Positions 10,325 to 53,632 of a stretch of DNA of 64,000 nt are shown piece after piece. Numbering within the stretch: position 1 is the first letter of the stretch; each line of letters opens with the position of its first letter. A model generated the notes under the pieces. The model saw only the letters and a program-made list of their open reading frames with translations, was not told the DNA's origin and made no database searches. The stretch comes from a virus (taxonomy: Duplodnaviria > Caudoviricetes): positions 32,001 to 96,000 of the IMG/VR virus record IMGVR_UViG_2921473944_000002; one strand, 5' to 3'. Position numbers and translations under genes: made by a program.

Positions 10325-10347
10325 GCACCTCCTTTACTATTATTGAA

Positions 10348-10430
10348 TGGGAAGTGATGGAGTCGAACCACCCGAGCCGTTAAGCAACAGATTTACAGTC
10401 TGCACCGCTACCTCTACGGGATAACTTCCC
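10348..10430 (-). tRNA. tRNA-Tyr (GTA)
   Basis: Reverse complement folds into a cloverleaf: GGGAAGT acceptor, CAGACT-GTA-AATCTG anticodon arm, long variable arm, GGTTCGACTCC T-arm. Confidence 0.9.
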
Positions 10431-10449
10431 AAAAAGAAAACCGGGGTAT

Positions 10450-10555
10450 TACACAACTCCGGTTTTATCTGCTATGTAGTTTTTAAATCAATGTCATAAT
10501 GATACACAACTCCGGTTTTATCTGCTATGTAGTTTTTAAATCAATGTCATAATGA
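10450..10555. repeat. Exact 53-bp tandem duplication
   Basis: 10450-10502 repeated at 10503-10555; covers the 3' end of the phosphoesterase gene and half of its terminator. Confidence 0.9.
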
Positions 10556-11733
10556 CACACAATTCCTGTGTCATCACAGACACATACCATCTGTTCTGGC
10601 GTACCATAAATTCTCTTTTGAACACAGAAATCATCTACGCCCATAAAACTTCCAGCCATAACAGTCTTGATTCCTTGTATTGATTCAACTCTATTATGAT
10701 GAAGGTGTCCAGATAGAATCGCATATACGGGTTTGCCAGCCAATGTTTGTAATGACTGCACTTTAGCAGCAGATCCGTCATAGTCACCATGTATGCCGAG
10801 ATATGTCTTTCCTCGGATATCGATGGTATACATTGTTTCATCAATCTTGTCATCCATCACAAAAACGTTATCGAAATTCTGCAGTCTCGCCTTGATATAC
10901 CATTCAACAAGATCATCTAACCGTTCGGTATGGAGAGAAGTTTCTTTATTAGGAGAAATTCTGCTGTGATTGCCAGCTACACTAATGAACGATACTGTGT
11001 TAAAATGTTTGCTTAGTTCTGCCAAAAACGTAGAAATTAGTTCAGATACACCAGTAATCTGTTGAATCACATTTTCTTTATTTGTAACCGCAATAGAATA
11101 GTGGATATTCCCGGAAATTAGATCGCCGTTCGCCCATACGATGCAATTTTCACTTGTATGTCTTTTCCCTATCTCGATGATACGGTCAAGATACGTGTTC
11201 ATCATTTCTGCACATATATCAGAATTGTATACATTCCATGCATTACGAATATTTGCTCCATAATGAACATCGTTCATACTTACAAGCAAATCATTGCCGG
11301 AGTGAATAATATCATGTGATTTGTATTCAAGTCCTTTCATACCACCAGACAAAATCGCACCAGTAAGAATTTCGTTTAGTTCTTCTTGTCTTGACCGTTC
11401 TCTAATAGAACGATTAAGTGCTGTTCTTTGGTCATATACCTTTTGCCTTTCCTTACGAAGCTCCAGTATTTTGGTATCTATTTCTGATACCATATCTTCA
11501 TCACTGATAGAAGCAGCGCGTGTACTATCAATGAGTTCCAGTGTTTTGCGACTCCCATACATCATACGACGTGCAACATCACTAGAATAAGGTTGACCAT
11601 AGACTTTTTCCGATAGTTCGACATAATCAACATCCGAAAGCGTCCGATCAACAAGTTTGCCATAAATAAGTCGCTTATGATAATCCATAAGCGACTCTTG
11701 TGGTTGTTGTTCTATATTCATATTGATAAGCAC
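10525..11733 (-). CDS. Calcineurin-like metallophosphoesterase with N-terminal coiled coil
   Basis: DVHYG, GDLISG, GNH, HGD, GHLHH motifs. Confidence 0.8.
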   Translation of the reverse strand: MLINMNIEQQPQESLMDYHKRLIYGKLVDRTLSDVDYVELSEKVYGQPYSSDVARRMMYGSRKTLELIDSTRAASISDEDMVSEIDTKILELRKERQKVYDQRTALNRSIRERSRQEELNEILTGAILSGGMKGLEYKSHDIIHSGNDLLVSMNDVHYGANIRNAWNVYNSDICAEMMNTYLDRIIEIGKRHTSENCIVWANGDLISGNIHYSIAVTNKENVIQQITGVSELISTFLAELSKHFNTVSFISVAGNHSRISPNKETSLHTERLDDLVEWYIKARLQNFDNVFVMDDKIDETMYTIDIRGKTYLGIHGDYDGSAAKVQSLQTLAGKPVYAILSGHLHHNRVESIQGIKTVMAGSFMGVDDFCVQKRIYGTPEQMVCVCDDTGIVCHYDIDLKTT

Positions 11734-11913
11734 CTACCCTTCGGCGCACACTTTATACTCATTGCGGTACGCTTTTAAAAACTCCATGATTTTATCGGAC
11801 TCCTCACAGAAATAATGATGTCTTCCGGGTTTATTTTTCATGGTTCTTCGGATATGCGCTTTTGGAAAGTGCTGTAAAATAGCTTCCTTTTCAACCTTTG
11901 ATACTCTAACCAT
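11734..11913 (-). CDS. Small basic hypothetical protein (59 aa, MVRVSKVEKEA...)
   Basis: Translated by hand; AAAGGAG RBS upstream. Confidence 0.55.
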   Translation of the reverse strand: MVRVSKVEKEAILQHFPKAHIRRTMKNKPGRHHYFCEESDKIMEFLKAYRNEYKVCAEG

Positions 11914-12058
11914 TTTTGATTCTCCTTTAACTCTTGTATTTATAGAACGTCACGTTCATATATTCCCTTCATACAAGCATCTCATCAAATCCCTATAATT
12001 GGTTGAGTATCAATAAGTTACAAGGTATAGCAAATTTATATCATGCTAAAAAAATAAT

Positions 12059-12847
12059 TTACACATCCGTATTTTTCCTTCTCATTATGTAGTTTACACG
12101 CTGTTGAACGGCTATTTCTGATGCGCAGGCTTTGCAGAACTTTTGTTTTCGCCCTTTATCTGGGTCTGAGTATTTTACGGTTATACCGCAATTTTCGCAT
12201 TCAAAGTACGGGTTATGTCTGTGTTTCCTGTATTTATATTTCATGTACTGGTATCCTAAATTACGAAAATCAGATATTGACAATACAGTAGGAGAGCAGT
12301 CATCGGAAACGAAACATACACGCACATTTGTGTTATCTATGCGTTTTGAGAAACGAAGAAGTCCTGCATCTTTAAGCATCCCGTATAGTAGGCATTGCCT
12401 TTTAATAGATGTATTAACATTAGCAAGTGCCATAATCTCATTATCCTTGTTGTTAACCCAGTAATCAGTTTCTGGTGATACAGTATACCAATATTTTGCA
12501 AGGCATAGTAATGTAAAAGCGAGCCGTTCTATTTGCACGCCACCAAGAGATTCTATCAATTTCAGTTCGTTTTCATAAATATCGATATGGTCGATATCTA
12601 CGGCTTCGTACTTGAAAGCACTTGATACGGCATATTCCAGAGCAGCGTCCCATTTTGGTAACGATGCAAGCGGATCGCATTGCAATAAGAAGATATCCAG
12701 TCTCTGACGCACTTCCTTTTTTTTGTCGTATCCGTTATCTATGTAATATCTAGCAATCCGACGCAATGTTTCGGATGGTTTCTTTCCTAATGATTTGGAC
12801 TGAATCATGTTTTCAGCCCAATCATTTTCTTTTAATACAATACTCAT
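12059..12847 (-). CDS. Hypothetical protein with C-terminal Zn ribbon, coupled to the RNAP gene
   Basis: CENC...CKAC; overlaps the RNAP stop codon. Confidence 0.6.
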   Translation of the reverse strand: MSIVLKENDWAENMIQSKSLGKKPSETLRRIARYYIDNGYDKKKEVRQRLDIFLLQCDPLASLPKWDAALEYAVSSAFKYEAVDIDHIDIYENELKLIESLGGVQIERLAFTLLCLAKYWYTVSPETDYWVNNKDNEIMALANVNTSIKRQCLLYGMLKDAGLLRFSKRIDNTNVRVCFVSDDCSPTVLSISDFRNLGYQYMKYKYRKHRHNPYFECENCGITVKYSDPDKGRKQKFCKACASEIAVQQRVNYIMRRKNTDV

Positions 12848-15591
12848 TCGTTCACCTCTAATTTCTTTGATACTATTTCAAATCTTTCGCCACAATATTT
12901 AATAGTTCCGTTAGATGCCAGTGTTGGGAAGCTAATTGTGTAATCATGGTTTAGTAGTAAATTATGTATAATTTCAGAACCGCACATATTCCATGCAAAT
13001 CTTTTGGAAGAGCTTTTTTGATAGCATAAATCCAAAACAATATTGCATAATGCAGATTCATTCTGGCAGATAATATCGCAAGATTTACGAAATTCTGCGT
13101 TCATTTCAGATAGCTCAGTAAATGCATCGTATTTATCTATCTTTTCGCTTTGTGCAAATACAGCATAGCTCTGCATCTTTTTATTGTAATCTTCATATAG
13201 CTTTTTGATTGCCTTGAATTGAGTCGTTGTATATTCCTCAGAAGGATTCTTCATAATAGTGTAATCAAACTTAATTTTAGAAGTGTGTTTTCTGATGTAC
13301 CCATCGAACTCTTGTTCAAATCGTCTGCATATTTTATTCATAACACAGTCTCCGGTTCCGACTGGCATTCGATAATCATAATACCTCAAGAAATCGGACT
13401 GTCGTTCTGTCAGTTCATTTGCTGGCAGCGATCTTAATTCATCAACCGTTAGTTGGAATTCTCGAAGGCAATTACGGTTTGTATTTTTTATGTATTGGTT
13501 GTATTGCTTCATAAGAGCGGGATAAATATATCGCATAAAGTATGGTTTTTTATCTGCCACAATGTTCCGATAGAACTCTCTAGTCACATCATCTTCAATC
13601 TTATTAGCTGCATGTCTGTCATGCCATGTGCGTGGCATTGGCTTACAAATAATACCCTTTGCCTTATCAATAGCATTCTGCTGATATAACTGACCGCATC
13701 TGATACGATAGGAGAGTGTGTCGTATTCAACACTTCCTTTTGGATGATGAGAGCGAACCTCAAACATCGATGTGATATAGTTTGTTGTCTGTCCAATGTC
13801 ATTACCAAAGCTTTCGATATTAGAGCGTACAAAATCATCTTCAGTAGGAATTGTCTTAGCTGCCTTTCGTTGAGCGCACATAAGAGCTGGAAGTGGTTCT
13901 AATTTCTCAACCAAAATTCTATTATCGCTCAGCATAACAAGGTCACCATCAAAATCCATTCCATTCAGAGCAGCTGCTGCAGTATCCCATGCATTAAAAA
14001 CCGTACATGTTTGCATATATCGATACCAATAATTCGCATCTGGATGATGAATTGGATGTACTAACCGGATGTTATTATGGCAAGTCATAGGCGCACGAAA
14101 ACATGCAAGTTTTTCCGCACCGGAATCTTTCCAATATTTGTTATACACTTCTCCAGATTTAAGGAGCCCGGTTATATTTAATCCAAACATACTCTGGCAT
14201 AAGGCATACGGGTCTCCGGATACAATGGAGTAGTTTCCATGCACTTTGAGTACACCTACTTTGGCTTCATCGATACGGTTCTTAATGAGCTGGTACACGG
14301 CATTCTGTATAAATGGGTCATCAATCATGCGCTCATCAATCATAATGGCTTTTACGAAGTCATCGTCTAAGTTTCTTATATTAGACTCATTCATTCCAAT
14401 GCCCTTTAGAAACAGAACTGTTTTTCGCCAATCACCGTGAAGGACATCCTTGATCTCATTCATCGTAGGGGCAATTAGTTCTTCAATCTCATCGTCAGAT
14501 AAATCGTAACTCTGAATGAACTGATAGTTTAAAGAATGTTCACTCTCTAATTCTTTCGGGCATGTCTTAGCAATTCCGAATGTATATCCATTGGATAGTG
14601 AATTCTGTACATAAGATTCGCAGCTATCATAGCTGTCCCAGAGCTTTACCATAGAAGTAGTGAGAATTAACTCTACGTCACGCACATCGAAATCATTTCC
14701 CCATGCATCTTTGATAATGTACTTGCCTCCGGCAATCTTTTCTGCAAAATCTACATAATCAAAAGTGAAAGCCATTCCCTTTTCAAATGAAAATCGCGTG
14801 TTAGCTCCGCTGACTGTGTAGTCAAGTCCAAGTTCTTTGCTCCAGCGTTCTGCGAGCGACGGGAGCATCATACCGAAACCATCTGATGCATCAAGATCAA
14901 CCTTTTGCTGTTTTTGTAAATCCATTGTTGGCTCACCGTCACATTCATCGGTCAGGTATACGATATCTGATAAGAAAGATGTCTCGCAATCATCTACAAC
15001 GGCAATTCCTTTAGGAAAAGAAACAGGAGTAGAAGCACTACATGTAAGAGCTTGATATGCTTCGAGTTTTGCTGTAACCAGTTCTTTTTCTGGATTGCGT
15101 CCATTAGAGATTCTGCGGTGTAATTCGTCTGCGACATTTTCACTGACAAATACAATAGTGCTGTTTTTAATCCCTCCGTTTGTGCCAAGTAGTCGTCGGT
15201 ATTTTACACCATTAATCTGAAACCCTTTGATAGCACGGTAGTAATCCTTTTCTTTATCGATAATCAACGTAACGTAATCTGCTTTATATTGTAATTGATC
15301 CAGCTCGTCATACAGTCTCCTAACGGCATGTCTGTTTTTTACACTATTCGTAGCAGTACGCAGACTACGAATTTCTTCTTTGATTTTCTTAGCTTTAGCA
15401 TCGGCGTCCGTAATATTGTTTAAAGAATCAATCCAACGCAATGTTTGGCTGTCTGCAAGTGATATCACCTCTTCATTTCTTCGCGCCTCTTCAATTGGAA
15501 GAGTTAGCCGCCAACGATGCTTGCGAAGACGGCTACTATGTAGTTTGTAAATAAATTTCTGACAAGTAAGTTGCTTGCTAATTTTAAACAC
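12844..15591 (-). CDS. YonO-like single-subunit (RdRP-fold, double-psi barrel) RNA polymerase
   Basis: 915 aa; SDGFG, FRAPMT, catalytic GMDFDGD and AIDKAKG motifs of the eukaryotic-RdRP/YonO family. Confidence 0.85.
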   Translation of the reverse strand: MFKISKQLTCQKFIYKLHSSRLRKHRWRLTLPIEEARRNEEVISLADSQTLRWIDSLNNITDADAKAKKIKEEIRSLRTATNSVKNRHAVRRLYDELDQLQYKADYVTLIIDKEKDYYRAIKGFQINGVKYRRLLGTNGGIKNSTIVFVSENVADELHRRISNGRNPEKELVTAKLEAYQALTCSASTPVSFPKGIAVVDDCETSFLSDIVYLTDECDGEPTMDLQKQQKVDLDASDGFGMMLPSLAERWSKELGLDYTVSGANTRFSFEKGMAFTFDYVDFAEKIAGGKYIIKDAWGNDFDVRDVELILTTSMVKLWDSYDSCESYVQNSLSNGYTFGIAKTCPKELESEHSLNYQFIQSYDLSDDEIEELIAPTMNEIKDVLHGDWRKTVLFLKGIGMNESNIRNLDDDFVKAIMIDERMIDDPFIQNAVYQLIKNRIDEAKVGVLKVHGNYSIVSGDPYALCQSMFGLNITGLLKSGEVYNKYWKDSGAEKLACFRAPMTCHNNIRLVHPIHHPDANYWYRYMQTCTVFNAWDTAAAALNGMDFDGDLVMLSDNRILVEKLEPLPALMCAQRKAAKTIPTEDDFVRSNIESFGNDIGQTTNYITSMFEVRSHHPKGSVEYDTLSYRIRCGQLYQQNAIDKAKGIICKPMPRTWHDRHAANKIEDDVTREFYRNIVADKKPYFMRYIYPALMKQYNQYIKNTNRNCLREFQLTVDELRSLPANELTERQSDFLRYYDYRMPVGTGDCVMNKICRRFEQEFDGYIRKHTSKIKFDYTIMKNPSEEYTTTQFKAIKKLYEDYNKKMQSYAVFAQSEKIDKYDAFTELSEMNAEFRKSCDIICQNESALCNIVLDLCYQKSSSKRFAWNMCGSEIIHNLLLNHDYTISFPTLASNGTIKYCGERFEIVSKKLEVNE

Positions 15592-23611: not shown

Positions 23612-24223
23612 ATGCAGAATATAGATGTCACAGCTTCTGAAATTTGGGATTACTGCCTAAATCATCAAGAAGCACTTTCGAGAAATCAGCATTTGATGGC
23701 AGAAAATCCAGATTACGGGATGGAAGTCTGGCTAACGATGATAAATGGTTCCCCGGAGCTTATTGTGGAATGTGATGGTAGTGAAATCTATCGGGAGGAT
23801 ATCCTGAATGAAAAGGATGCAAAGAAAACAGCTGATAGGATATATGAAGATTATCTGAGCATCAAAGCAATTGAAACATTGACTGACGATGGCAACATGA
23901 CGGTTGATGAAGATACAACGGTTTATATCGAGGATGAAGAAGATGATGAGCAGTCATTGATTGATGAGAGAGAAGATGAGATTGAGTTATCTGTCAGGGA
24001 TTTTGTAAGTGTAGTGTCAGATACAGGGTGTTACAACGTAGAAGATGAAGTCATCGATGATTTAAAAGAACATTTCCTTGAGTATATGTATCGAAAATGG
24101 GGAATCGGAATCTATAGACCGATGTACCTTGAAGATGCAGATACAGGAGAGGATTATTTTACGGAATATCCATACGATGATCTGGTATATGAGGATGATA
24201 ATCCAATATATAAACAAGAGTAG
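23612..24223 (+). CDS. Acidic hypothetical protein
   Basis: 203-aa D/E-rich ORF. Confidence 0.65.
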   Translation: MQNIDVTASEIWDYCLNHQEALSRNQHLMAENPDYGMEVWLTMINGSPELIVECDGSEIYREDILNEKDAKKTADRIYEDYLSIKAIETLTDDGNMTVDEDTTVYIEDEEDDEQSLIDEREDEIELSVRDFVSVVSDTGCYNVEDEVIDDLKEHFLEYMYRKWGIGIYRPMYLEDADTGEDYFTEYPYDDLVYEDDNPIYKQE

Positions 24224-24341
24224 TTAAAGCCGACGATTATCGTCGGTATGCTTACCAATGCTCGGCTTCCGGGATGCCAACCCAAGCGTAAGCGGATAGC
24301 GCAAACGGAGTAAATATAAGAGAAAAAAGGAGATAAAAATT

Positions 24342-24731
24342 ATGGCAAAAGTAAAAACAATGGGACAGGCAATCGTAGTAGTATCTGATGTGAAACTTGA
24401 GGATATCAAGAAGATTGAGAAGTATCGTCCAGATGCGCTGGTTCTTAAAGGCGGCGAGGACAATAAAGAAGAAATCTTCAGAATCGGTACAGGTAGCAGC
24501 AGTATCAATACATACGGAGCTTCTTTCTGTGAAGAGACTCGTGATGATGATAAAAAGGCTGTTATTACTATGACAACAGGTTACAACGGAGATGATATCA
24601 AAGGGTTCATCGCAGATGAGCTTGGTGCAGCTCTGACAAACCTCGGAAAGCTTGAAAAAACTATCCCAGCAGTCATCGATGCTATCGACAAAGAAAGAGA
24701 AGCTATTATGTCTGGCATTACAGTTGCGTAG
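24342..24731 (+). CDS. Hypothetical protein
   Basis: 129 aa, strong RBS, followed by a terminator hairpin (24745-24774). Confidence 0.7.
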   Translation: MAKVKTMGQAIVVVSDVKLEDIKKIEKYRPDALVLKGGEDNKEEIFRIGTGSSSINTYGASFCEETRDDDKKAVITMTTGYNGDDIKGFIADELGAALTNLGKLEKTIPAVIDAIDKEREAIMSGITVA

Positions 24732-24831
24732 TCTTGCAGCATGTGGCTACCGTCTAGTTGCGGTAGCCATTTTTAAAAACTGAATATGGTACAAAATACA
24801 TAATTTTTAATGAAGAAAAGGAGATCAAACC

Positions 24832-25059
24832 ATGATTAAAGTTACAGTAGGAAATAACGTAAAAAGAAACAGCGTAATCGTAGATGAGGCAACAACTCTG
24901 AGATCAGTGCTCGAAACAAATGAAATTGATTACACAAGAGGAACAATGCATCTTGATGGTTCTACACTGCAGCCGGGAGACCTTGATAAGTCATTCTCTG
25001 ACATGGGAATCAGAGAAAAATGCTTCCTTCTGAACGTAGTAAAAGCTGATAATGCGTAA
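24832..25059 (+). CDS. Ubiquitin-like (beta-grasp) protein
   Basis: 75 aa with Ubl/ThiS-like pattern (MIKVTV...TLRSVL...LDG...LDKSFSDMGI...LLNVV-tail); upstream of E2-like, JAB and E1 genes. Confidence 0.6.
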   Translation: MIKVTVGNNVKRNSVIVDEATTLRSVLETNEIDYTRGTMHLDGSTLQPGDLDKSFSDMGIREKCFLLNVVKADNA

Positions 25060-25159
25060 GTAGTTAAAGCCGACGATTATCGTCGGTATGCTTACCAATG
25101 CTCGGCTTCCGGGGAGAAATAATCTCCCCGGTATTATAGGTAATCACGGAGGCGCTACT

Positions 25160-25804
25160 ATGGCAAAGAAAAAGAACAACTTTTATGCGGTAAAGAAAGG
25201 AAAGATTCCCGGTTTATATAAAACATGGGATGAGTGTAAAGCGCAGGTTGATGGCTTTAGTGGCGCTTTATACAAAGGGTTCTCAACAAGGAAAGAGGCT
25301 GAGAATTACTTGGATGGCAATATTGAATCAGAAGAAGATTCTTTAAACGAGGCGGAGGTTACAATATATGTAGACGGAAGCTATGATGAAAACACCAAGG
25401 TGTATGGATATGGTTTTGTGGTTATCAATAAAGACGGAACCGTAGAAAAATATTATGGAGCAGGAAATAATCACGAGTCTGCAAAATTAAGAAATGTAGC
25501 AGGAGAGATGCTTGCGTCTATGAACGCTGTTAGATATGCAATTCAACACGGGTATAAGTCTGTGAAAATTTATTATGATTACAGTGGTATAGAAATGTGG
25601 GCGACTAAGGAATGGAAAACAAAGAATAATTTAACCACGAAGTACGCTTGCGCAATGCAAGAATGGATGTCAGAAATTTTAATTTCGTTCCAGAAAGTCG
25701 CAGCTCATACAGGCGTCGAATACAATGAAGCCGTAGATCAGCTTGCAAAATTTGCGGTAAGTAATTTTTGTAAGGAAAACAGTATAGGGAATGGAATGCG
25801 TTGA
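25160..25804 (+). CDS. Ribonuclease HI with N-terminal hybrid-binding (Cauli_VI) domain
   Basis: FYAVKKGKIPGLYKTWDECKAQVDG; YVDGS, RNVAGE, YYDYSG, KVAAH...NEAVDQLAK. Confidence 0.9.
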   Translation: MAKKKNNFYAVKKGKIPGLYKTWDECKAQVDGFSGALYKGFSTRKEAENYLDGNIESEEDSLNEAEVTIYVDGSYDENTKVYGYGFVVINKDGTVEKYYGAGNNHESAKLRNVAGEMLASMNAVRYAIQHGYKSVKIYYDYSGIEMWATKEWKTKNNLTTKYACAMQEWMSEILISFQKVAAHTGVEYNEAVDQLAKFAVSNFCKENSIGNGMR

Positions 25805-25942
25805 GGCGCTGATAGATGGTTCGATTCCATCCGTTCCATCTATCTCATAGATGGAAATGAGATATGAGGAGGCTGTCCGAGATGTAAGAAACAGTCGGCT
25901 TGTGGATTGCCGGTACAAATATGCTGAAAATCCATATTAAAC

Positions 25943-26016
25943 GGATTGTTAGCTCAGGTGGTTAGAGCAACCGGCTCATAACCGGTCGGTCATCCGTTCG
26001 AGTCGGATACGATCCA
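25943..26016 (+). tRNA. tRNA with CAT anticodon, most likely tRNA-Ile2
   Basis: Cloverleaf; CCGGCT-CAT-AACCGG anticodon arm typical of Firmicute tRNA-Ile2. Confidence 0.85.
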
Positions 26017-26043
26017 TTGAATATTTAAAAAGGAGGAATTAAA

Positions 26044-27609
26044 ATGTTCAGACCAACCATTAACAATACGCCATTGACATCACAAATGGCAAATAGCTAT
26101 TTCCAAAATATTTATGGAGATAACTTTAATTCTGATGTAACTTTTGTTTCAACATTAAGAGCATTGGTTGCAAATAGAATCAAAGACGATGAAAGAGTAG
26201 TACTTAAGTTCAGGAATAGTTCGTTCGATAAAGACACAATTGAAGGCGCAAGCGATATAAATGTGTTGAATGCTGTATGTAATCCAATGAACTATGCAAA
26301 CGGTACAATCATTGTGCATAATTTTAGAGGAAATGCACAAGGGAATTTGGCATCTTTCCGAGTAATGGAAAGAGGATTCACATCAACATATAGTGGATTT
26401 GAGAGAATCGTTAAAGTAACAGAGTTTTTTAGAAAAACTTTTTACTCGTTATGTTTTGTTAACCCTAACACTAAGCAGGTTGTAATATTCATAGACAACC
26501 TAAATATCCGTCGTATGCATTATTTACAGTGCGCCATTTTTGCATTTATGCCTTGGTATTTTGATCCAAGTGAAGGTGTTACGGCAGATGAAATGGAACT
26601 GATTCAATCGTTAAGAGAGACAACGCCTGACAGATATATGGCTGCGATTGCAAAGATTGCATCTGCATATGATTTTAGATCCATGCATATCAGAAACGAA
26701 CTTAAAGGTTTCGAAACAATATACGAGAAAAGACAGTGCGCAGAACTCGAACAAAATATCGAATCGTATCTCCGCAATATTAGAGACTATAACGATCAAA
26801 TTGCGAATATTCTTAGACAAAAATACGATGCTGAAATTAGATTGCTTGGGCTGAAAGATAAAATTGCGGCATCAGAAGGGGAAGATTCAGAGATTATGGA
26901 ATACTTCCTCTGCAATTCGAAGCTCGATTTGGAGTATGTTAATAACTCTGACCTGACATTTGTTGTCAAGGATTATCTTATGTATTTCGATGAAGATATG
27001 GCAAAGACAATTATTGATAACAATCGAAGCTATATATATCGAAATTCCAGAGATTTTGATGCAGACGATGTGAAGAAGCTGATGTATGCGATTTTCATTG
27101 ACCAGACAATCAGGCTGCGATTCTGCTGTGCGTATACACTCCGGTTAGGAGAGCGTGTCAGAGGATTAAGCGATTACGATTATAATGAAACCTATAGTAC
27201 ATATATGCCAAATCCACATATCGACAGATATAGTTGTCTGGGAAATTACGAGCGAACAATGAACGAAAGACTTAGAGATAATGATGCTATTGGAGCAATA
27301 GAATTATGTATTTCTTCGTGTAAGAGTTTGAATTTCAGTGACAGTACGGTTATGGAAACTTTCATGGCTCGCATGACTGGGGAACATGGATATAGACACA
27401 ATAAATGCATTGAACTCCCAGATGGAAGTGTTGTAGATATGAAAGGTGCTATTGCGTGGATGAAAGAACAGGAAGAAGCTACTGAGCAGAAAGAAGAAAC
27501 TACAGAAAATGAGCAGGAAGTTCCTGAAAGACCGGAACAGGCGGCAGATACAGTTGAAGAGCCAATCGAAGATGATATTGATTTGCCAGACGACGAATTT
27601 GAATTCTAA
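26044..27609 (+). CDS. Coiled-coil protein with putative C-terminal prokaryotic E2-like domain
   Basis: NPHIDRYSCLG resembles the E2 HPH/N...C active site; lies between the Ubl and JAB/E1 genes. Confidence 0.5.
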   Translation: MFRPTINNTPLTSQMANSYFQNIYGDNFNSDVTFVSTLRALVANRIKDDERVVLKFRNSSFDKDTIEGASDINVLNAVCNPMNYANGTIIVHNFRGNAQGNLASFRVMERGFTSTYSGFERIVKVTEFFRKTFYSLCFVNPNTKQVVIFIDNLNIRRMHYLQCAIFAFMPWYFDPSEGVTADEMELIQSLRETTPDRYMAAIAKIASAYDFRSMHIRNELKGFETIYEKRQCAELEQNIESYLRNIRDYNDQIANILRQKYDAEIRLLGLKDKIAASEGEDSEIMEYFLCNSKLDLEYVNNSDLTFVVKDYLMYFDEDMAKTIIDNNRSYIYRNSRDFDADDVKKLMYAIFIDQTIRLRFCCAYTLRLGERVRGLSDYDYNETYSTYMPNPHIDRYSCLGNYERTMNERLRDNDAIGAIELCISSCKSLNFSDSTVMETFMARMTGEHGYRHNKCIELPDGSVVDMKGAIAWMKEQEEATEQKEETTENEQEVPERPEQAADTVEEPIEDDIDLPDDEFEF

Positions 27610-27622
27610 GGAGCGTTGAATT

Positions 27623-28576
27623 ATGAGTAAAATGATAAAATTACCACAGGATATCCTTGATCAGTATACAAAGGAGTTTTACGAAACTTTAAGATCAGGA
27701 AAATTTCCAGATGGGAAAGTTAATTTTTCCAAGACATTAGGGACTGTTGATAGAAAAGCAACAGTCCTTTTTACAGAGTTGGCATGGCAGAAAATGCAGC
27801 TCCTTATCAGGGAATTTAACGATGAGGTAGCATGGCACGGCATCGCAACGAGATGTGAAGAGCAAGATACATATCTCATTTCTGATATTTTGGTGTATCC
27901 ACAGGAGGTTACAGGAACTACTGTTACTACAGATCAGGAAAAATATCAGATGTGGTTAATGGAGCAGGAAGACGATATATTTAATAACATTAGAATGCAG
28001 GGTCATTCTCATGTAAATATGGCAACCAGCCCATCCAGTGTGGACTTGAATCTATATGAAAGTATCCTAGATCAGCTCAGTGGTGATATGTTCTATATCT
28101 TTATGATTTGGAATAAGAGCGGGAGCAAAACTGTAAAAATTTACGACCTCAGAGAGAATATTCTATTTGAGACTTCTGATGTTACAGTATCCATTAAAGA
28201 TGTTGGCGATATGTCTGGATTTTTGAAAGAAGCAAAGGAATTGGTGCAGAGAAAAACATATACATCTACATATGGCGGAAATGGATATCCGTATTCAGGA
28301 TATGGTGGATACGGTGGCTATGGAGCCAAGAAAAAAGATGAAAAGAAAGATGTGACAAGCCTGGGAAAACACAAACCCCTTACGTCAGAAAATAAAAAAA
28401 GCAAAGGACGTAAGGGGAAGCGTAAGAAAGGAAATAAATCTACTAAACAGGTGACATTAGATGATTACTTCGGATTATCAACCCAAGACGTCGATGGATA
28501 TGATGACGCAGATCTTGATGGTCTGAGCGAGTATGAGGATGAATATTGGCGACGTAAATATGGTTTCGATTGCTAG
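27623..28576 (+). CDS. JAB/MPN+ (JAMM) metalloprotease
   Basis: Glu in EVAWHG plus GHSHVNMATSPSSVD (HxH-x7-S-x2-D). Confidence 0.85.
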   Translation: MSKMIKLPQDILDQYTKEFYETLRSGKFPDGKVNFSKTLGTVDRKATVLFTELAWQKMQLLIREFNDEVAWHGIATRCEEQDTYLISDILVYPQEVTGTTVTTDQEKYQMWLMEQEDDIFNNIRMQGHSHVNMATSPSSVDLNLYESILDQLSGDMFYIFMIWNKSGSKTVKIYDLRENILFETSDVTVSIKDVGDMSGFLKEAKELVQRKTYTSTYGGNGYPYSGYGGYGGYGAKKKDEKKDVTSLGKHKPLTSENKKSKGRKGKRKKGNKSTKQVTLDDYFGLSTQDVDGYDDADLDGLSEYEDEYWRRKYGFDC

Positions 28577-28589
28577 GGTGGTGAGATAA

Positions 28590-29066
28590 ATGACAAGAGA
28601 TGATTTTCAAAGGGACGTAAGTAGCTGGTCTGACCTGAGAGCATTCTGTAATGAATATGGGTGTTCGGTATGCGAAGATGTATATTCGCAAGAAGAAATG
28701 GATGAAGAGATTAGTTCAAATCTAGTACAAATGGCGAGAGATGCGAGTGATTGGCATGAACTCTATCATCAGCTTGAAGATATACCAGATGGGTATTATT
28801 TTTATCTTAAAAATGAGTATGATGAATTTTCTGGCGCTGATGATGATGACTTTGAAAGCTATCGCTCTGATGCTTTTGAGTGGGGCGAATACGAGGGAAT
28901 CTTCGAGGATGAAGAGGAAGAAGACGATGACTACGAGGAAGAACTCGAGGAGACAGAGGAGCATTGTGATCCAGATGACGAGTACGAGGTCGGAAATGAA
29001 GATATTCCAATTGCAGATCTTTTCATAGTACCGAAAAACGGAGATAGAGGAATTTATAATGTATAA
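28590..29066 (+). CDS. Highly acidic hypothetical protein
   Basis: 158 aa with D/E runs, between JAB and E1. Confidence 0.6.
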   Translation: MTRDDFQRDVSSWSDLRAFCNEYGCSVCEDVYSQEEMDEEISSNLVQMARDASDWHELYHQLEDIPDGYYFYLKNEYDEFSGADDDDFESYRSDAFEWGEYEGIFEDEEEEDDDYEEELEETEEHCDPDDEYEVGNEDIPIADLFIVPKNGDRGIYNV

Positions 29067-29081
29067 CACAAGGAGGACAAT

Positions 29082-29753
29082 ATGGATTTAAGTAAATCAT
29101 ATGAATTTTTTCAGCCAGAGAAAGATACAGCAAGAATCCACATCGTAGGATGTGGATCTGTTGGCTCAACAATCGCAGAGAATCTTGCAAGATGCGGAGT
29201 GACCAAAATGACATTGTGGGATTTCGATAAAGTTGAACCTCATAATATCGTAAATCAGATGTTTAATCAGAATGATGTTGGTAAATTCAAGGTAGATGCT
29301 CTGAAGGATATTTTGACAGATATTAATCCAGAGATCGCAGAAAAAATTGAGGTTAAGCCAGAAGGATGGCAGGGAAAATTGATGTCTGGATATATCTTCT
29401 TATGCGTAGACAGTATCGAACTTAGAAGAGAGATTGTTGAAAAGCATATGGATAGTCCGTATGTAAAAGCGGTATTTGATTTTAGAACACTGCTTGAAAG
29501 CGCACAGCATTATGCAGCTGACTGGTCTGATTCCAAAATGAAGGAAGATTTATTGAACTCGATGCAGTTCTCACATGATGAAGCTAAGGATGAGACACCA
29601 ATATCCGCTTGTGGTGTTACACTTGGTGTAGCGACAACAGTAAGATTGATTTCAGCTCTCGGTGTGAACAACTACATCAATTTCGTAAAAGGCGATGGAA
29701 TCAAGAAAATGATTATTATGGACGGGTTCAAATTTGACCTGTTGGCGTTTTAG
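29082..29753 (+). CDS. ThiF/E1-like adenylyltransferase
   Basis: IVGCGSVGS, DFDKVEPHNIVNQ, CVDSIELR, candidate catalytic Cys in SACG. Confidence 0.9.
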   Translation: MDLSKSYEFFQPEKDTARIHIVGCGSVGSTIAENLARCGVTKMTLWDFDKVEPHNIVNQMFNQNDVGKFKVDALKDILTDINPEIAEKIEVKPEGWQGKLMSGYIFLCVDSIELRREIVEKHMDSPYVKAVFDFRTLLESAQHYAADWSDSKMKEDLLNSMQFSHDEAKDETPISACGVTLGVATTVRLISALGVNNYINFVKGDGIKKMIIMDGFKFDLLAF

Positions 29754-29755
29754 CC

Positions 29756-29962
29756 ATGAGGGATAAGCAAAGAATCGACCTATTCTGCGAAATTTTATCG
29801 ACTGCGTGGAAAAGAGTACCAGACATGAGATTCGGTCAGCTAATGTATAACTTCTTTCACGACGAGTATAACTCTGATCCATTTTATATAGAAGATACAG
29901 AACTGATTCGTAGCTTCCAAGCATATGTCGATAAAATCAGCAAAAATATGCATTCAAGATAA
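29756..29962 (+). CDS. Small hypothetical protein (DUF1040/YihD-like)
   Basis: RID...W...PDMRFGQL...FYIED pattern. Confidence 0.55.
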   Translation: MRDKQRIDLFCEILSTAWKRVPDMRFGQLMYNFFHDEYNSDPFYIEDTELIRSFQAYVDKISKNMHSR

Positions 29963-29964
29963 AT

Positions 29965-29991
29965 AAACCGCCACCAAATGTGGCGGTTTTT
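29965..29991 (+). terminator. Rho-independent terminator
   Basis: AAACCGCCAC-caaat-GTGGCGGTTT-TT. Confidence 0.8.
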
Positions 29992-29994
29992 ATA

Positions 29995-30266
29995 AAGAAC
30001 GTGCAATGATATTTATCTCTTCGAGATAGCTTCTTACTGTTAGTGGAAGTAACAACTTGAGCAGTGGGACAACACCACGGAAATAGAAGGCGGGACATGC
30101 ATCTCCTCCAGAAACATAAATTGGAATAATACATAGAAACCGTCATCTTCAGAAATAAAGAACAAACGTATTGATAATCAACGGATTACAGGTCAGCCAA
30201 ATAAAAGTTGATCAGGAGGAGACTCCGCGGGATACAGTTATACACACATTAGATTGCAAGGTTCTT
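29995..30266 (+). ncRNA. Retron-like msr/msd ncRNA unit 1
   Basis: Terminal IR AAGAAC.TGCAAT/ATTGCA..GTTCTT, G at 30008 after the stem, two short hairpins, 32-nt core; lies immediately 5' of the RT. Confidence 0.8.
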
Positions 30267-30279
30267 GAAAGGAGAAAGT

Positions 30280-31419
30280 ATGTACTATATTACTGTAAAG
30301 CAGCCTCCGTCATACCATCAGATGACATTAGAAGAGTTCCTTTTTGGAGGCAATACGCAAACTAGACTAATAAATGAAAATCTTACAAATACAAGGACAT
30401 ATGAAGTAGAAAATATAAGCGAAAGATTTCTTCAGCTTGTAAATGTTGATAAACTTATCGAAAAACTTATATGGTTCAATGAAAGAACAGATTATCTGAG
30501 AGAAAAGCCTAGACGTGATTGGTATTATGAGTTCCATATACCAAAAAAGAGCGGCGGACTTAGGAAGATTGATGCCCCAGAACCAGAATTAAAAGAGGCG
30601 CTCAGTACTTTAAAAACTATATTTGAAGTAGATTTTCAGGCGCTTTATCACACATCGGCTTTTGCTTACATTCACAAAAGATGCATTATAGACCTGCTGA
30701 AAAGACATCAGGCGAATGAAAGCAAGTGGTTTGAAAAATTAGATTTATCAAACTTTTTTGGCAGTACAACGATGGAATGGGTATTACAAATGTTTTCAAT
30801 GGTATTTCCTTTTTCAGAAGTGCTCAAAGACGAAAGAGGTAGGGCAGAATTCGCAAAGGCTATTGAACTTGGATTTTTGGACGGCGGTTTGCCACAAGGG
30901 ACGCCGTTATCTCCAATAATCACTAATATTATGATGATTCCGGTTGATTTCGAGATAGCAAGAACATTAAGAGAGTATAATCATCAGAGGTTTGTATATA
31001 CAAGATATGCTGATGATTTTCAGATTTCATCTAAATATAGTTTTAGCTTCACAGAAATACAAAATGTAATTGTGTCCATCTTAAAGAATTTCAAAGCTCC
31101 ATTTACAATAAACAGTACAAAAACAAGATATGGTTCTTCGGCAGGGCAGAATTGGAATCTTGGTCTTATGTTGAATAAAGATAATGAAATTACAGTAGGG
31201 CATAAGAAAAAAAGACAATTTCAAGCAATGCTTTCTTCGTATGTTATGGATAGGAAGAATGGAATTGCTTGGGATAAGAGTGACATTCAAACAATGGAAG
31301 GATATCGAAACTACTATCGAATGGTTGAACGAGAGAAGATTGATGGAATCGTAAAACATTTAAGTGATAAGTTCGGAGTAGATATCGTAAAGGCAATTAA
31401 AGAAGACCTTGCGGCTTAG
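30280..31419 (+). CDS. Retron-like reverse transcriptase
   Basis: IPKKSGGLRKIDAP, SAFAY, KLDLSNFF, LPQGTPLSP, YTRYADD; ~379 aa with no extra domain. Confidence 0.92.
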   Translation: MYYITVKQPPSYHQMTLEEFLFGGNTQTRLINENLTNTRTYEVENISERFLQLVNVDKLIEKLIWFNERTDYLREKPRRDWYYEFHIPKKSGGLRKIDAPEPELKEALSTLKTIFEVDFQALYHTSAFAYIHKRCIIDLLKRHQANESKWFEKLDLSNFFGSTTMEWVLQMFSMVFPFSEVLKDERGRAEFAKAIELGFLDGGLPQGTPLSPIITNIMMIPVDFEIARTLREYNHQRFVYTRYADDFQISSKYSFSFTEIQNVIVSILKNFKAPFTINSTKTRYGSSAGQNWNLGLMLNKDNEITVGHKKKRQFQAMLSSYVMDRKNGIAWDKSDIQTMEGYRNYYRMVEREKIDGIVKHLSDKFGVDIVKAIKEDLAA

Positions 31420-31463
31420 GCTGTATGGTCTTCTAATAAATTGACCAAATAATTAAAATAAAA

Positions 31464-31724
31464 TCTATGCAATGAAATTACTGTTTTACAGTGCTTCTTA
31501 CTGTTAGTGGAAGTAACAACTTGAGAAGGAGAAGAACAGGGAACCAAGCAGACGACGCAGCGTGCAGTCCAGGATCCATCGCTTCCCAAAACCATAACGA
31601 TAAAATCGGGTAGAACCATCCATTGATAATCAATATAAATTCGCCCAGAATTAGGAGACCTAACTACCAGAAGGACGATCACCCGAATGAGAAATCAAAG
31701 CCCACACACACCAGATTGCATAGA
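31464..31724 (+). ncRNA. Retron-like msr/msd ncRNA unit 2
   Basis: Perfect 10-bp IR TCTATGCAAT/ATTGCATAGA; identical 32-nt core at 31493-31524. Confidence 0.8.
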
Positions 31725-31725
31725 G

Positions 31726-32007
31726 ATGTACAATGAAATTATATCCTTTGGATATGCTTCTAGCCGTCGGCGGAAGTGACAACTTGATAAGGAGATGGAT
31801 GACAGAAGACCACGAGCTCTGGAGCCAGAAAACGGGAAACCAGATCCAAAACATACGACTAACACATCAGGAACTAATTGTCAATAGCATAAGCAATTGG
31901 AAATCAATGAAATCTCGTAAACAACAGAGCTAAAGCACACATCTCGGATCTTCAGAGCTCAGCTGCAGCTTAAAGAAGACATCACCATTACATATTAGAT
32001 TGTACAT
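31726..32007 (+). ncRNA. Retron-like msr/msd ncRNA unit 3
   Basis: Perfect 9-bp IR ATGTACAAT/ATTGTACAT; core 25/32 identical with compensatory changes; followed by a T-run. Confidence 0.78.
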
Positions 32008-32043
32008 TGTTTTTTTTGAATAAATAATATTAAGGAGGAAGTT

Positions 32044-32502
32044 ATGTACATCAACACAAGTATTAACGCAATTAAAATTCCAAGAAAATTTAGTAATTCT
32101 ACTCCAAATGAAGATAAGATGGAGTCTTGCAGAAGATTCTATAAAGCTAACGGTATACTAGATAGAAATATCGTTGTAGATGAAAATATGGAATTAAAAG
32201 ATGGATATATTGGCTATCTAGTTTTGAAAGAGAGTAATGCATCGGTAGTAGGAGTTGACCAAAGAACAACAGAAAAGACAGTTATCGTATACGGTGTTCA
32301 TCCTGGTGTAGCCAAGGAATACTGCTGGAAAGTTGTCGAAGAAACGGAAGATAAGCAAAATCTTAGAGTCGGAGCACATGCGGTAGTAAGGACAAGATTC
32401 GGTGATACTGAAATTCTCATTACGAGAATCGAGCATATAACGAAAAGAAAGAAGAGACAAATGGGACATGTAAAAAGAGTTGTAAGATGCCTGATGGAGT
32501 AG
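32044..32502 (+). CDS. Hypothetical protein
   Basis: 152 aa, AGGAGG RBS. Confidence 0.65.
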   Translation: MYINTSINAIKIPRKFSNSTPNEDKMESCRRFYKANGILDRNIVVDENMELKDGYIGYLVLKESNASVVGVDQRTTEKTVIVYGVHPGVAKEYCWKVVEETEDKQNLRVGAHAVVRTRFGDTEILITRIEHITKRKKRQMGHVKRVVRCLME

Positions 32503-33183: not shown

Positions 33184-34737
33184 AGATGAGCAAAACACAT
33201 TGATCCAAAAGTAGAACTTGGCAGTTAGCTCCCATAAAGTTTGAGGTTGCGATTTTATGGCATAGCAAAGCTAACGTAAGTCCAAAACTTACGAAATCAT
33301 AAGACTATGAGAATTTTTTAATCAAGCAATTCGTTTTATTGTTTTTAGTTTGCGATAAGACTGACCAGAATGGCTAGTGATTGCGGCAACGGCAACTGCT
33401 AGTAAACTGATATGGGCAAGTGTGTTTAAGTTTGTAACAGATGCTTTATTTCTCACCCACATCCGCTCCTGACCAGTATTTTTAAAACGCGAATTATAGC
33501 GTTCACATTCTGTGCGGAGTGAATAATTACTTTCAAAATATTTGCTGTCCCTATCAATGGAAAGTCTTAAATCATCAGGAATGGTGAGATATTTCGTACA
33601 GCCACGATGCTTTTTACCATTATAGAAATTTTTGTGGTGGCATGGGCAAACGGTATCTTTACTTGATTTTAGAGGACAACAAAACTTTTGACGGGTACGA
33701 CCACAATCGGAAAACTTACCATCCTTCCACATGGCAAGCCCTGCTTCGCAAATGGGATTCCCTTGAGGAAGAAGTTTCGGATTTTTGGAATTACGTTTGT
33801 TTAATGGAATGATACATTCTCCATTGTAAAGATCCTTAACCTGATTGTAGATATTTTTGACATCGTAACCTTTGTCGGCAAGGAATGTGCAGTCCGTTAT
33901 TGGTTGAAAGGAATGGGTAGCAGCAAGGATATCTAAAGCGATGGTAGCATCATGAACTTCCGCGGTTGTGGTCATTTCATAAATAGGAAGACCTGAAATA
34001 CAGTCTACAAGGACATGATTTTTATAGCCCCAATAGAATTCATATTTTTTCTCGTTCGTTTGATTGGATGCAGTGTGGACGCCGAGTTTACAATCCGAAT
34101 CTGCCCTTGGTTGATTTCCGGGTTTAAACTTATTTGAGAGAAAAGATTTCGGATTATTCTGTGAAGTATTTGCAGAGACAGGGGTTGAATCTAAGCCAAT
34201 AAAAGAAGTGTCTACAATACCTTCTTTAGAAAGGAATAACACCTGAGTTTTCATGATTTCAGAGAGAACTTTGTTATCGAAATTTTTCAGGAAGCGATCA
34301 AAGGTCCAATAAGAAGGAAGTGGACGAGAAATATCAAAGCCACAAAAATGCGCAATCAGAAGATTATTGTGAAGATAATCGACAAGATCGGAAATCATGG
34401 AGAAGCCTTCGCATTTCATGACAATAAAGGAACAAATCATAGCGTGATTTGAAAAGCCTTTCCTTCCTGTCTTGGGGAATTCCGGAACAAAGGATAAATC
34501 AAGATTCAAAAAAAGAGAATCATAAAACTTTGCAACTGGTTGTGAAGTGAAAAGACGAATGTCTTTCAAAATTTCTTGACGATAGATAACAATCAGCTCC
34601 TTTCGGTGAATTGATTTTGACAACTTAATTATACCATTTGGAGTTGATTGTTACTATAAATTTGGAGTGATAAAAGAGGTTGCCATGCCTCGCAAACCCG
34701 CATAAATACTGAATGTGTGGAGTTTTGCTCATGGCTA
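33181..34737 (-). mobile_element. IS element (IS4/IS5-superfamily DDE), 1557 bp
   Basis: Terminal IRs TAGAGATGAGCAAAAC / GTTTTGCTCATGGCTA (14/16); target duplication TGAAATTTTA at 33171-33180 and 34738-34747. Confidence 0.9.
33322..34623 (-). CDS. DDE transposase
   Basis: LDSTP, ADKGYD, Y-2-R-3-E-6-K (YSLRTECERYNSRFK). Confidence 0.9.
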   Translation of the reverse strand: MSKSIHRKELIVIYRQEILKDIRLFTSQPVAKFYDSLFLNLDLSFVPEFPKTGRKGFSNHAMICSFIVMKCEGFSMISDLVDYLHNNLLIAHFCGFDISRPLPSYWTFDRFLKNFDNKVLSEIMKTQVLFLSKEGIVDTSFIGLDSTPVSANTSQNNPKSFLSNKFKPGNQPRADSDCKLGVHTASNQTNEKKYEFYWGYKNHVLVDCISGLPIYEMTTTAEVHDATIALDILAATHSFQPITDCTFLADKGYDVKNIYNQVKDLYNGECIIPLNKRNSKNPKLLPQGNPICEAGLAMWKDGKFSDCGRTRQKFCCPLKSSKDTVCPCHHKNFYNGKKHRGCTKYLTIPDDLRLSIDRDSKYFESNYSLRTECERYNSRFKNTGQERMWVRNKASVTNLNTLAHISLLAVAVAAITSHSGQSYRKLKTIKRIA

Positions 34738-52447: not shown

Positions 52448-52777
52448 GGGGCTGTAAAGGTTTCGACAGGGGTATGAAAGTTATGAGTTCGCTTAGAGTG
52501 ATGACTTAATCATCAAACTTTAAATACAAACGCAAACAGACAGATGTTAGCAGTAGCCTAAGTTGCTACACCAAAATACATTGAGATATTGCTGGTAGAT
52601 GTTGAGGTTCAAAAACAAGCATATTCAGTATACGGTTCCCTGTATATGAATACCTGCATTGGTTGAGATAGTTAAGAACAGGGTGGTGGATGAGAAATCA
52701 GTACATGATTCCAAAACAGCGTAAAGATTCATAGTGAGTAGTATTTTTGGACAGGGGTTCGATTCCCCTCAGCTCCA
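52448..52777 (+). ncRNA. ssrA: tmRNA
   Basis: 5' GGGGCTGTAAAGGTTTCGAC, 3' GGGGTTCGATTCCCCTCAGCTCCA; tag ORF (A)ANRQMLAVA* at 52532-52561. Confidence 0.93.
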
Positions 52778-53141: not shown

Positions 53142-53631
53142 TATGAAAACATTAATAAAGTATTTACTAAAAGAGGATACTGTTATTTTCTTCGATGTGG
53201 ATGGTGTACTTGCGCCTTATGAATTTGGAGAAAATAGACACTGTATCGACGATGCGGAATGGGATAGAAAGATGGAAAATGGAGAAGATATGTATTCAAC
53301 AGTTGCTCCTGTTAAGCTATTTCAACAGTTTATCTCTCAAAAGGGTATAGATAATGTATATGTTTGTTCAAAAGCTAATCCGGAAGAATATGAATCCAAA
53401 ATGAAATTTTGTCATGACGGATATGGAATCCCGATGGATCACATTATTATGGTTTCTTCTAAAAATGATAAACTTGCGATATTAAAAGCATTCGCAGAAG
53501 CTAATTCTATTCCAGAAAATAAAATTGCAATGGTAGAAGATACAACGAAGACACTAGATATGATTGCTAAAGGAAGTAAATGCTCTACTATACATGTATC
53601 TTCGTTTCTTGATTACAGTCATGAGGAGTAG
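53142..53631 (+). CDS. HAD superfamily hydrolase
   Basis: FFDVDGVL motif I, MVED motif IV. Confidence 0.7.
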
Positions 53632-53632
53632 T

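Follow-up and report, generated by a model that had tools for sequence, protein, structure and literature searches.

The temperate gut phage examined here carries what is probably a complete ubiquitin-like (Ubl) protein-tagging cassette, composed of a predicted ubiquitin-fold tag, a ThiF-type activating enzyme (E1), a probable transfer enzyme (E2-like) and a predicted trimming protease of the JAB/JAMM type, which in every related locus with enough flanking sequence is inherited together with a retron-type reverse transcriptase (RT), a pairing that we found in none of the papers searched. The window analysed is a 64,000-nucleotide stretch of an IMG/VR record (IMGVR_UViG_2921473944_000002) of 117 kb that is 99% complete, and the presence of terminase, portal and ligase genes confirms that it is phage DNA. 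The initial annotation, made from the sequence alone, had proposed a phage-encoded Ubl, E2-like, JAB and E1 module with an unusual Ala-terminated Ubl; all five of its open reading frames are where it placed them and co-oriented, no thiamine or molybdopterin genes lie beside them, and the core of its interpretation is supported. It had, however, left out an RNase H1 gene and a tRNA-Met between the Ubl and the 521-aa gene and a conserved gene upstream of the Ubl, and what it described as a coiled coil in the 521-aa protein is one long helix. The features of the locus are collected in Table 1.

Table 1. Features of the cassette and its flanks, in coordinates of the 64,000-nucleotide window.
Coordinates	Strand	Feature	Description
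24342..24731	+	p129	Conserved 129-aa protein of unknown fold, directly upstream of the Ubl
24832..25059	+	Ubl	75-aa predicted ubiquitin-fold tag; flexible tail ending K-A-D-N-A (VVKADNA)
25088..25804	+	RNase H1-type protein	Cauli_VI N-terminal domain plus RNase_H; at this position only in the window's own subclade
25943..26016	+	tRNA-Met (CAT)	Occupies a conserved tRNA slot just upstream of the E2-like gene
26044..27609	+	E2-like protein	521 aa; N-terminal alpha/beta domain (about 1-220), long helix (223-277), predicted C-terminal UBC/RWD-like domain (about 280-465), acidic disordered tail; contains NPHIDRYSCLG
27623..28576	+	JAB/JAMM metalloprotease (predicted)	317 aa; globular part about 1-200, then a Gly/Tyr-rich, a Lys-rich and an acidic tail
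28590..29066	+	Acidic protein	158 aa; conserved N-terminal MTRxEF...W.EL..FC.D..C..CEDIY motif
29082..29753	+	E1	223-aa ThiF-type adenylating enzyme; SAC176G
29756..29962	+	p68	Small ORF, only in the window's subclade
29965..29989	+	Hairpin	GC-rich, 10 bp, followed by a T-tract (terminator-like)
30265..31419	+	RT	Retron-type reverse transcriptase, outside the coordinates of the initial annotation

The tag is predicted to fold as ubiquitin (pLDDT 92), with ubiquitin or Ubl domains as all of its top-50 PDB matches, and it is the most conserved gene of the block. Its tail is flexible (the mean pLDDT of the last block is 60) but, in contrast to the Gly or Gly-Gly end expected of Ubl modifiers, it ends in Ala in nearly all family members. 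About 13% of 120 homologues carry short, unrelated extensions of 1 to 22 residues after ...DNA, the hallmark of a processed Ubl precursor, and the same is seen in distant loci. Ala-ended substrates are conjugated by Cap2 (PMC10097602). It is very unlikely that the Ubl is instead a sulfur carrier, thiocarboxylated by the E1 as ThiS, MoaD and TtuB are in order to thiolate a tRNA or another nucleic acid, although this might explain the tRNA gene inside the block: no rhodanese, cysteine desulfurase or TtuA-type gene was found among the nine proteins scanned, the 521-aa protein has no SGGxDS PP-loop motif, known sulfur carriers end in Gly-Gly, nearly all fold matches are of ubiquitin or SUMO type, and the identity of the tRNA varies.

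The E1 is a clear ThiF-type enzyme (Pfam ThiF 2.7e-24, 86.1 bits against a cut-off of 28.1), and its matches include UBA5 (5e-12), MoeB (1.5e-9) and Cap2 (2.6e-6) in the PDB and the Cap2-type E1-E2 model in PADLOC (4e-20). GCGxxG, D48, N55, K71, D110 and C176 are at least 95% conserved in 51 sequences, but the set of ATP/Mg-binding residues is not the full one, as the Arg of the NxxRQ motif is Asn58 in all 51. MccB is also among the PDB matches (4.6e-8) and Asn is the penultimate residue of the tag in almost all members, which raises the possibility that JAB removes the last Ala and that the E1 modifies the exposed Asn (succinimide, then a nucleotide adduct) as MccB does on microcin C7, producing a protein-nucleotide conjugate. 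We consider this improbable, as the UBA5, MoeB and Cap2-type E1 matches are as good or better, some distant tags lack the Asn (...DGAAI) while the Ala is kept, and a conserved E1 Cys and an E2-like Cys point to thioester relay.

The protease has a complete JAMM motif, with E68, H128, S129, H130, S138 and D141 (E...HSH-x7-S-x2-D) invariant in 23 homologues, yet it gives no hit to the Pfam JAB or Prok-JAB models at E up to 0.1, and its family profile finds no JAB in the PDB. Only marginal similarities were seen, to Rpn11 (E 0.6, phmmer, with the motif aligned) and, by hhalign, to PRTRC-A with the HSH...S..D motif in register (P 0.02), while the nearest language-model neighbour in the Atlas is a viral JAB-domain cluster at 0.95 with 202 of 256 shared features.

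In the 521-aa E2-like protein, P389 is nearly invariant, and N390, H392, C398 and G400 are invariant in 76 diverged members; these are four of only seven invariant residues, forming PN-x-H-x5-C-x-G, with the same Asn-to-Cys spacing as Prok-E2_D and, it would appear, as the canonical HPN...C motif of E2 enzymes. The structural neighbours of the C-terminal domain are RWD and E2 domains, all members of the UBC superfamily, although the fold matches are weak, and the Atlas points to Prok-E2_D as the nearest named family. On the other hand, none of the 76 members hits any E2 family (Prok-E2_A to E, UQ_con) at E up to 1, a member-by-member Pfam scan returning only coiled-coil noise, and PF14460 finds nothing in the genome. 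Foldseek with the whole 521-aa model found nothing, a wide VIA search was swamped by the single long helix, and an exhaustive profile search listed only full-length family members so that no bridging relatives were seen. It is possible, though unlikely, that the Ubl, E1 and JAB form a SAMP/UbaA- or TtuB/TtuC-like system that conjugates without an E2, much as archaeal and Thermus systems seem to work with an E1 alone (PMC2948915), and that the 521-aa protein is a cysteine-dependent enzyme, a scaffold or the main substrate that simply rides in the operon. Against this stand the E2 spacing of the PN-x7-C-L motif, the UBC-superfamily neighbours, the position of the gene, which is that of the E2 in the PRTRC cassette, and its tight coupling to JAB, whose start lies 13 nt after the E2-like stop.

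More generally, plain HMM searches (Pfam, NCBIfam, PHROGs, PADLOC) gave nothing for the Ubl, the 521-aa protein, JAB, the acidic protein, p129 or p68, and sequence and profile searches of the PDB were blank for the Ubl and the 521-aa protein. Comparisons by hhalign with single PRTRC proteins, and with small alignments of Prok-E2_D, Prok-E2_B, PRTRC-A, PRTRC-C and PRTRC-E, all gave low probabilities, but these negatives carry no weight as the method could not link even Prok-E2_B to Prok-E2_D in a control.

Each protein has over a thousand homologues, and the order p129 - Ubl - (tRNA) - E2-like - JAB - E1 - RT holds in every locus with enough flank among 72 related phage loci, down to 23-27% E2-like identity and including a record with different surroundings, far more than chance would allow. 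The RT, which lies downstream of the E1 at a median gap of 1163 nt, therefore belongs to the same inherited unit. The E2-like, JAB, (acidic) and E1 genes are packed 2-16 nt apart. p129 precedes the Ubl at a median gap of 82 nt in all loci with enough flank and retains a median 57% identity across distant phages, with no hhalign similarity to PRTRC-E or to the Ubl. A tRNA (identified here by ARAGORN and by Rfam at 62 bits, the only Rfam hit in 24000-32200) occupies its slot in 56 of 71 related loci, and is mostly Leu, with Met in this subclade and Tyr or Lys in a few. The acidic protein (55 D+E against 8 K+R) belongs to a real family and is not a composition artefact; it lies between JAB and E1 in 22 loci and about 3 kb after the RT in 37. 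The RNase H1-type gene (Pfam Cauli_VI 1e-20, RNase_H 5.6e-14) lies between the Ubl and the E2-like gene in only 7 loci and downstream of the RT in the related loci designated L001-L004, and p68 was found in 6 close loci, always 2 nt after the E1. The hairpin that follows it, noted in the initial annotation as a terminator separating the module from the RT, is real on the + strand when read directly from the sequence, although the automated scan lists it on the minus strand. The C-termini of the RT, JAB, E1, E2-like and acidic proteins are not conserved as Gly or Ala, and while p129 ends in a conserved NITV(A)(Q) motif, its Ala is not universal. A DNA-level search of deposited phages found only tRNA matches and a protein search found one unannotated faecal contig.

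Among known systems, the closest is the PRTRC cassette of plasmids and ICEs (ParB-related, ThiF-related; NCBIfam models such as TIGR03736; Prok_Ub, Prok-E2_D, DUF2016+Prok-JAB, ThiF), which encodes the same four activities as separate genes in the same order (C...B, A, ThiF), is likewise carried by a mobile element, and has a similarly short E1 without Zn-binding CxxC pairs and with a similar cysteine motif (TPSCS, against TPxSAC here). However, no phage protein reaches the curated PRTRC models, with PRTRC_ThiF at 32.5 bits against a cut-off of 144.75 and no other PRTRC model hit. The PRTRC Ubl ends in Gly (...GTKG), the phage E2-like protein is twice as long, with an extra N-terminal domain and a long helix, and the phage block adds p129, a tRNA, an acidic protein and an RT. 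In type II CBASS, Cap2 provides the best PADLOC and NCBIfam match to the E1 domain, Cap3 is a JAB that acts as trimming and deconjugating enzyme, the conjugated C-terminus may be Ala (PMC10097602), and the cascade serves a nucleic-acid or nucleotide-synthesising enzyme encoded beside it, which here would be the RT; but E1 and E2-like are here separate genes, there is a dedicated ubiquitin-fold tag rather than the enzyme's own tail, no CD-NTase or effector was found among the nine proteins scanned, and the block is carried by a phage, apparently as core equipment. With BilABCD, tested for membership only at the level of the Ubl fold, there is no sequence-level match, and the Ala terminus, the E2-like architecture, the phage location and the coupling to an RT are different. 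The phage tail-assembly pair TAPI/TAPK of lambda and T1 (Iyer et al., 2006; PMC1779556) also combines a phage-encoded beta-grasp protein with a JAB peptidase, but has no E1 or E2 and lies in the tail module, with a Ubl that ends in Gly and is fused to another domain, whereas the genes here sit in the DNA-metabolism arm. Finally, the RT is retron-type (Pfam RVT_1 1.5e-19; PADLOC RT_II-A 2.4e-47; NCBIfam retron St85 family 1.8e-49) but scores below the curated cut-off (168.6 against 235 bits), and we found no retron type with an E1/E2/JAB/Ubl partner in the papers searched.

The explanation we favour, with reasonable though not full confidence and with each chemical step and the biological role inferred, is that JAB trims the residues encoded after the Ala in some relatives to expose the reactive end, that the E1 adenylates the C-terminal Ala and probably holds it as a thioester on Cys176, and that the tag then passes to Cys398 in the UBC/RWD-like domain of the 521-aa protein, whose N-terminal domain and long helix would bind partners or substrates. 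From there it would go onto lysines of still unknown targets, and JAB would also reverse the tagging. As the cassette is inherited as one block with p129, a tRNA gene, the acidic Cys-motif protein and the RT, it most likely works with, or regulates, the RT/ncRNA system, much as Cap2/Cap3 regulate the CD-NTase in type II CBASS.

Whether the block serves the phage or excludes its competitors is a related question. The record is classed as a provirus and holds three tyrosine recombinases, the RT is retron-type, and known E1/E2/JAB systems (CBASS type II, Bil) are defensive (PMC10097602; PMC10557695), so that the block might be a retron-like anti-phage module carried by a temperate phage, with the Ubl cascade as its effector or regulator. 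We regard this as a less likely alternative, because every relative recovered has the block in one fixed place in the DNA-metabolism arm and its proteins have diverged to 23-27% identity in step with the phages, which looks like a core gene set and not a swappable defence island, although all these loci were recovered with the E2-like protein as query and phages that lack the block were thus not sampled. A further possibility, and one we hold only tentatively, is that the Ubl cascade and the RT form one machine that the phage uses for itself, in which tagging of the RT, of p129 or the acidic protein, or of host proteins would switch cDNA synthesis from the phage's ncRNA templates on or off, or the reverse. 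That would be the first coupling of reverse transcription to ubiquitin-like conjugation, and the first complete Ubl cascade used by a bacterial virus as core equipment rather than by the host for defence.

Bacterial E1/E2/JAB/Ubl systems have so far been studied as host weapons against phages (CBASS type II, Bil) or as unexplained plasmid cargo (PRTRC), and our searches of the literature found no paper describing a phage Ubl/E1/E2/JAB cassette. The block is very widespread, with over 2000 protein clusters at 50% identity for the E2-like protein alone, almost all from uncultured gut-type phages. Trypsin should cut after Lys71 and leave an A-D-N-A remnant on modified lysines, so the targets should be directly findable by mass spectrometry. 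If the chemistry is confirmed, viruses of bacteria would be shown to run their own ubiquitin-like tagging, a natural modifier with an Ala terminus and a very divergent, two-domain E2 would be available for study, and there would be a concrete handle on what phage-encoded retron-like RTs are for.

All of the ORFs named in the initial annotation are present and co-oriented, and they are listed in the table together with three features that it did not include but which also belong to the picture: a conserved 129-aa gene (p129) upstream of the small ubiquitin-like (Ubl) protein, and an RNase H1-type gene and a tRNA-Met that lie between the small protein and the 521-aa gene. The small protein ends VVKADNA, the 521-aa protein contains NPHIDRYSCLG, and the acidic protein has 55 Asp+Glu against 8 Lys+Arg. 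The GC hairpin that had been annotated as a terminator is followed by a T-tract and is real on the + strand.

Features of the cassette and of its surroundings, with positions in the window
Feature	Position	Strand	Length or note
tRNA-Tyr	10347-10431
ORF matching only PHROGs of unknown function	12844-15591	-	915 aa
p129	24342-24731		129 aa
Ubl	24832-25059	+	75 aa
RNase H1-type gene	25088-25804
tRNA-Met	25943-26016
E2-like protein	26044-27609	+	521 aa
JAB protease	27623-28576	+	317 aa
JAB tail	28238-28576		follows the globular domain
Acidic protein	28590-29066	+	158 aa
E1	29082-29753	+	223 aa
Terminator-like hairpin	29965-29989	+	followed by a T-tract
ORF with a transposase-like look	33322-34623	-	433 aa
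tmRNA gene	52448-52777		tag peptide ANRQMLAVA
Nicotinamide phosphoribosyltransferase and nucleotidyltransferase	57383-58846 and 53564-54661

The DNA is phage: the window holds a large terminase, a portal and a DNA ligase, and it is part of a 117,339-bp IMG/VR record that is classed as a provirus, is 99% complete and has three tyrosine recombinases. The phage also encodes a tmRNA, as well as a nicotinamide phosphoribosyltransferase (PHROG 1.4e-163) and a nucleotidyltransferase which together may be an NAD+ salvage or regeneration set of the kind used against NAD-depleting host defences. The 433-aa minus-strand ORF interrupts the plus-strand gene run between the reverse transcriptase (RT) region and the ligase. 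As for the 915-aa ORF, in a relative (locus L003, positions 1-245) the gene at the equivalent side of the locus, whether or not it is truly equivalent, carries Pfam RdRP (PF05183), the YonO-type single-subunit RNA polymerase family.

When modeled with an alignment of 32 homologues, the 75-aa protein is predicted with pLDDT 92 to fold as beta-beta-alpha-beta...beta, with low confidence for the last five residues, and all 50 of its best Foldseek matches in the PDB are ubiquitin or ubiquitin-like domains (prob 1.0, TM up to 0.72). Among 120 listed homologues the end ...VVKADNA is essentially invariant, yet about 13% carry short, unrelated extensions after it (A, K, AA, VA, HQ, KVDLKKK, LPIDPVE and others). 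In the most distant relatives the end is still ...N-A with zero to a few extra residues (...KLDNA, ...KTDNA-A, ...KLDNA-NA, ...AKAVNA, ...QGNA-I, ...MDNA-LAA); a conserved mature end followed by a variable stretch is what Ubl precursors look like. The Ubl is also the most conserved gene of the block, its median identity being 79% in phages where that of the E2-like protein has dropped to 47%. p129, always directly upstream, has a C-terminus with a conserved ...NITV-A motif followed by nothing or by one residue (Q, G or E), a pattern that loosely echoes the processed end of the Ubl although 11 of 56 members break it, and p129 is a possible substrate or second client of the E1.

The 223-aa protein is a ThiF-type E1 (Pfam ThiF 2.7e-24) whose best solved relatives are UBA5 (5e-12), MoeB, Uba1, MccB and Cap2, and whose best matches in the defence library are Cap2-type E1-E2 proteins (4e-20). 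In 51 non-redundant family members the GCGxxG loop, D48, N55, K71, D110 and Cys176 (in TPxSAC) are at least 95% conserved, and upon alignment with PRTRC ThiF proteins the cysteine motif corresponds to their TPSCS. One departure stands out: the Arg of the canonical N-x-x-R-Q ATP-binding motif is Asn in every member (residue 58), whereas PRTRC ThiF, a Cap2-like E1 and a Lactiplantibacillus ThiF keep the Arg. It may be that the ATP site is completed by another residue or by a partner protein.

In the 317-aa protein, E68, H128, S129, H130, S138 and D141 are invariant in 23 homologues, which is the complete JAMM signature E...HxH-x7-S-xx-D. Support beyond the motif is modest, as phmmer aligns the motif to Rpn11 only at E 0.6 and hhalign places it in register with the PRTRC-A motif at P 0.02, while a protein-language-model search gives a viral 'JAB domain-containing' cluster at 0.95. 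After its globular domain, the JAB has a tail that is conserved in kind, consisting of a Gly/Tyr-rich stretch, then a Lys/Arg-rich stretch and then an acidic Tyr-rich end, and it looks like a disordered region of the nucleic-acid-binding or condensate type.

The model of the 521-aa protein is confident (pLDDT 87) and shows an N-terminal alpha/beta domain, one helix of about 55 residues (223-277), a C-terminal alpha/beta domain (about 280-465) and an acidic disordered tail. The family is very large, with 2282 representatives at 50% clustering, but in 76 diverged members only seven columns are invariant; four of these are N390, H392, C398 and G400, and P389 is nearly so. The Asn-to-Cys spacing (8) equals that in Prok-E2_D (N-V-W-x-x-G-x-V-C) and, it would seem, that of the canonical HPN...C motif. 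The structural searches gave mixed results. Foldseek with the whole model found nothing and a wide VIA search saw only the long helix, whereas the nearest named cluster in the Atlas for residues 280-470 is Prok-E2_D (0.89), which we regard only as a lead. Comparison by hhalign with Prok-E2_D and Prok-E2_B alignments was negative, but as the same method failed to connect these two known E2 families to each other, this says nothing either way. A 420-aa uncharacterised siphovirus protein (BFVD entry A0A8S5PR93, Siphoviridae sp. ct96x5) is a distant structural relative (Foldseek E 1.8e-21, 17% identity) and could be a route to more remote members of the family.

We examined 72 related loci, comprising two metagenome contigs of 167 and 206 kb plus shorter copies, 67 IMG/VR loci, and one deposited faecal phage contig. 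The order p129 - Ubl - E2-like - JAB - E1 - RT is found in every locus with enough flank, down to 23-27% identity of the E2-like protein. The E2-like, JAB, (acidic) and E1 genes are packed 2-16 nt apart, the Ubl lies a median 150 nt upstream with p129 a median 82 nt before that, and the RT lies a median 1163 nt downstream. The acidic protein is a real family with an N-terminal Cys motif (W.EL..FC.D..C..CEDIY) that sits either between JAB and E1 (22 loci) or about 3 kb past the RT (37 loci); it stays in the neighbourhood but is not locked into the operon, and the RNase H is at the position seen here only in the closest relatives. A tRNA gene sits immediately upstream of the E2-like gene in 56 of 71 loci, and its identity changes between subclades (Leu in about 46, Met, as here, in 6, Tyr in 2 and Lys in 1); it could be an RNA-processing punctuation mark that uncouples expression of the Ubl from that of the enzymes, or it could be linked to the RT. 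In the most distant loci HU and p203 are no longer detected upstream and the surroundings differ, yet the six-gene block remains. In the distant faecal contig (MT835544.1), downstream of the block lies an array (9500-12300) of at least eight small paralogous proteins (about 65-100 aa), all ending ...C.C.SLL. The RT is thus part of the inherited unit, despite the terminator-like hairpin that precedes it in this window.

Among known systems, the nearest is the PRTRC cassette of plasmids and ICEs. An Azospira plasmid shows E - C (Prok_Ub) - two unknowns - B (Prok-E2_D) - A (DUF2016+Prok-JAB) - ThiF, which is the same polarity and order as here, with a similar short E1. However, the curated-model criteria that we could apply do not place the phage block within PRTRC, as the E1 reaches 32.5 bits against a cut-off of 144.75 and no other PRTRC model is hit, and the PRTRC Ubl also ends in Gly. 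Type II CBASS shares the E1 type, the JAB and the tolerance for an Ala terminus (PMC10097602), but it fuses E1 to E2 and tags with the CD-NTase's own tail. Bil shares separate genes and a structurally similar Ubl, and the phage tail-assembly TAPI/TAPK pairs have no E1 or E2 (PMC1779556). We found no paper describing a phage-borne full cascade or its pairing with a retron-type RT, in a search that reached few articles in subscription journals.

Our results support the initial reading of these genes as a phage-encoded Ubl - E2-like - JAB - E1 cassette with an Ala-terminated tag, although the E2 assignment is its weakest link and the chemistry and the targets are only inferred. The link to the RT is strong, and the block may serve either the phage's own cycle or superinfection exclusion.
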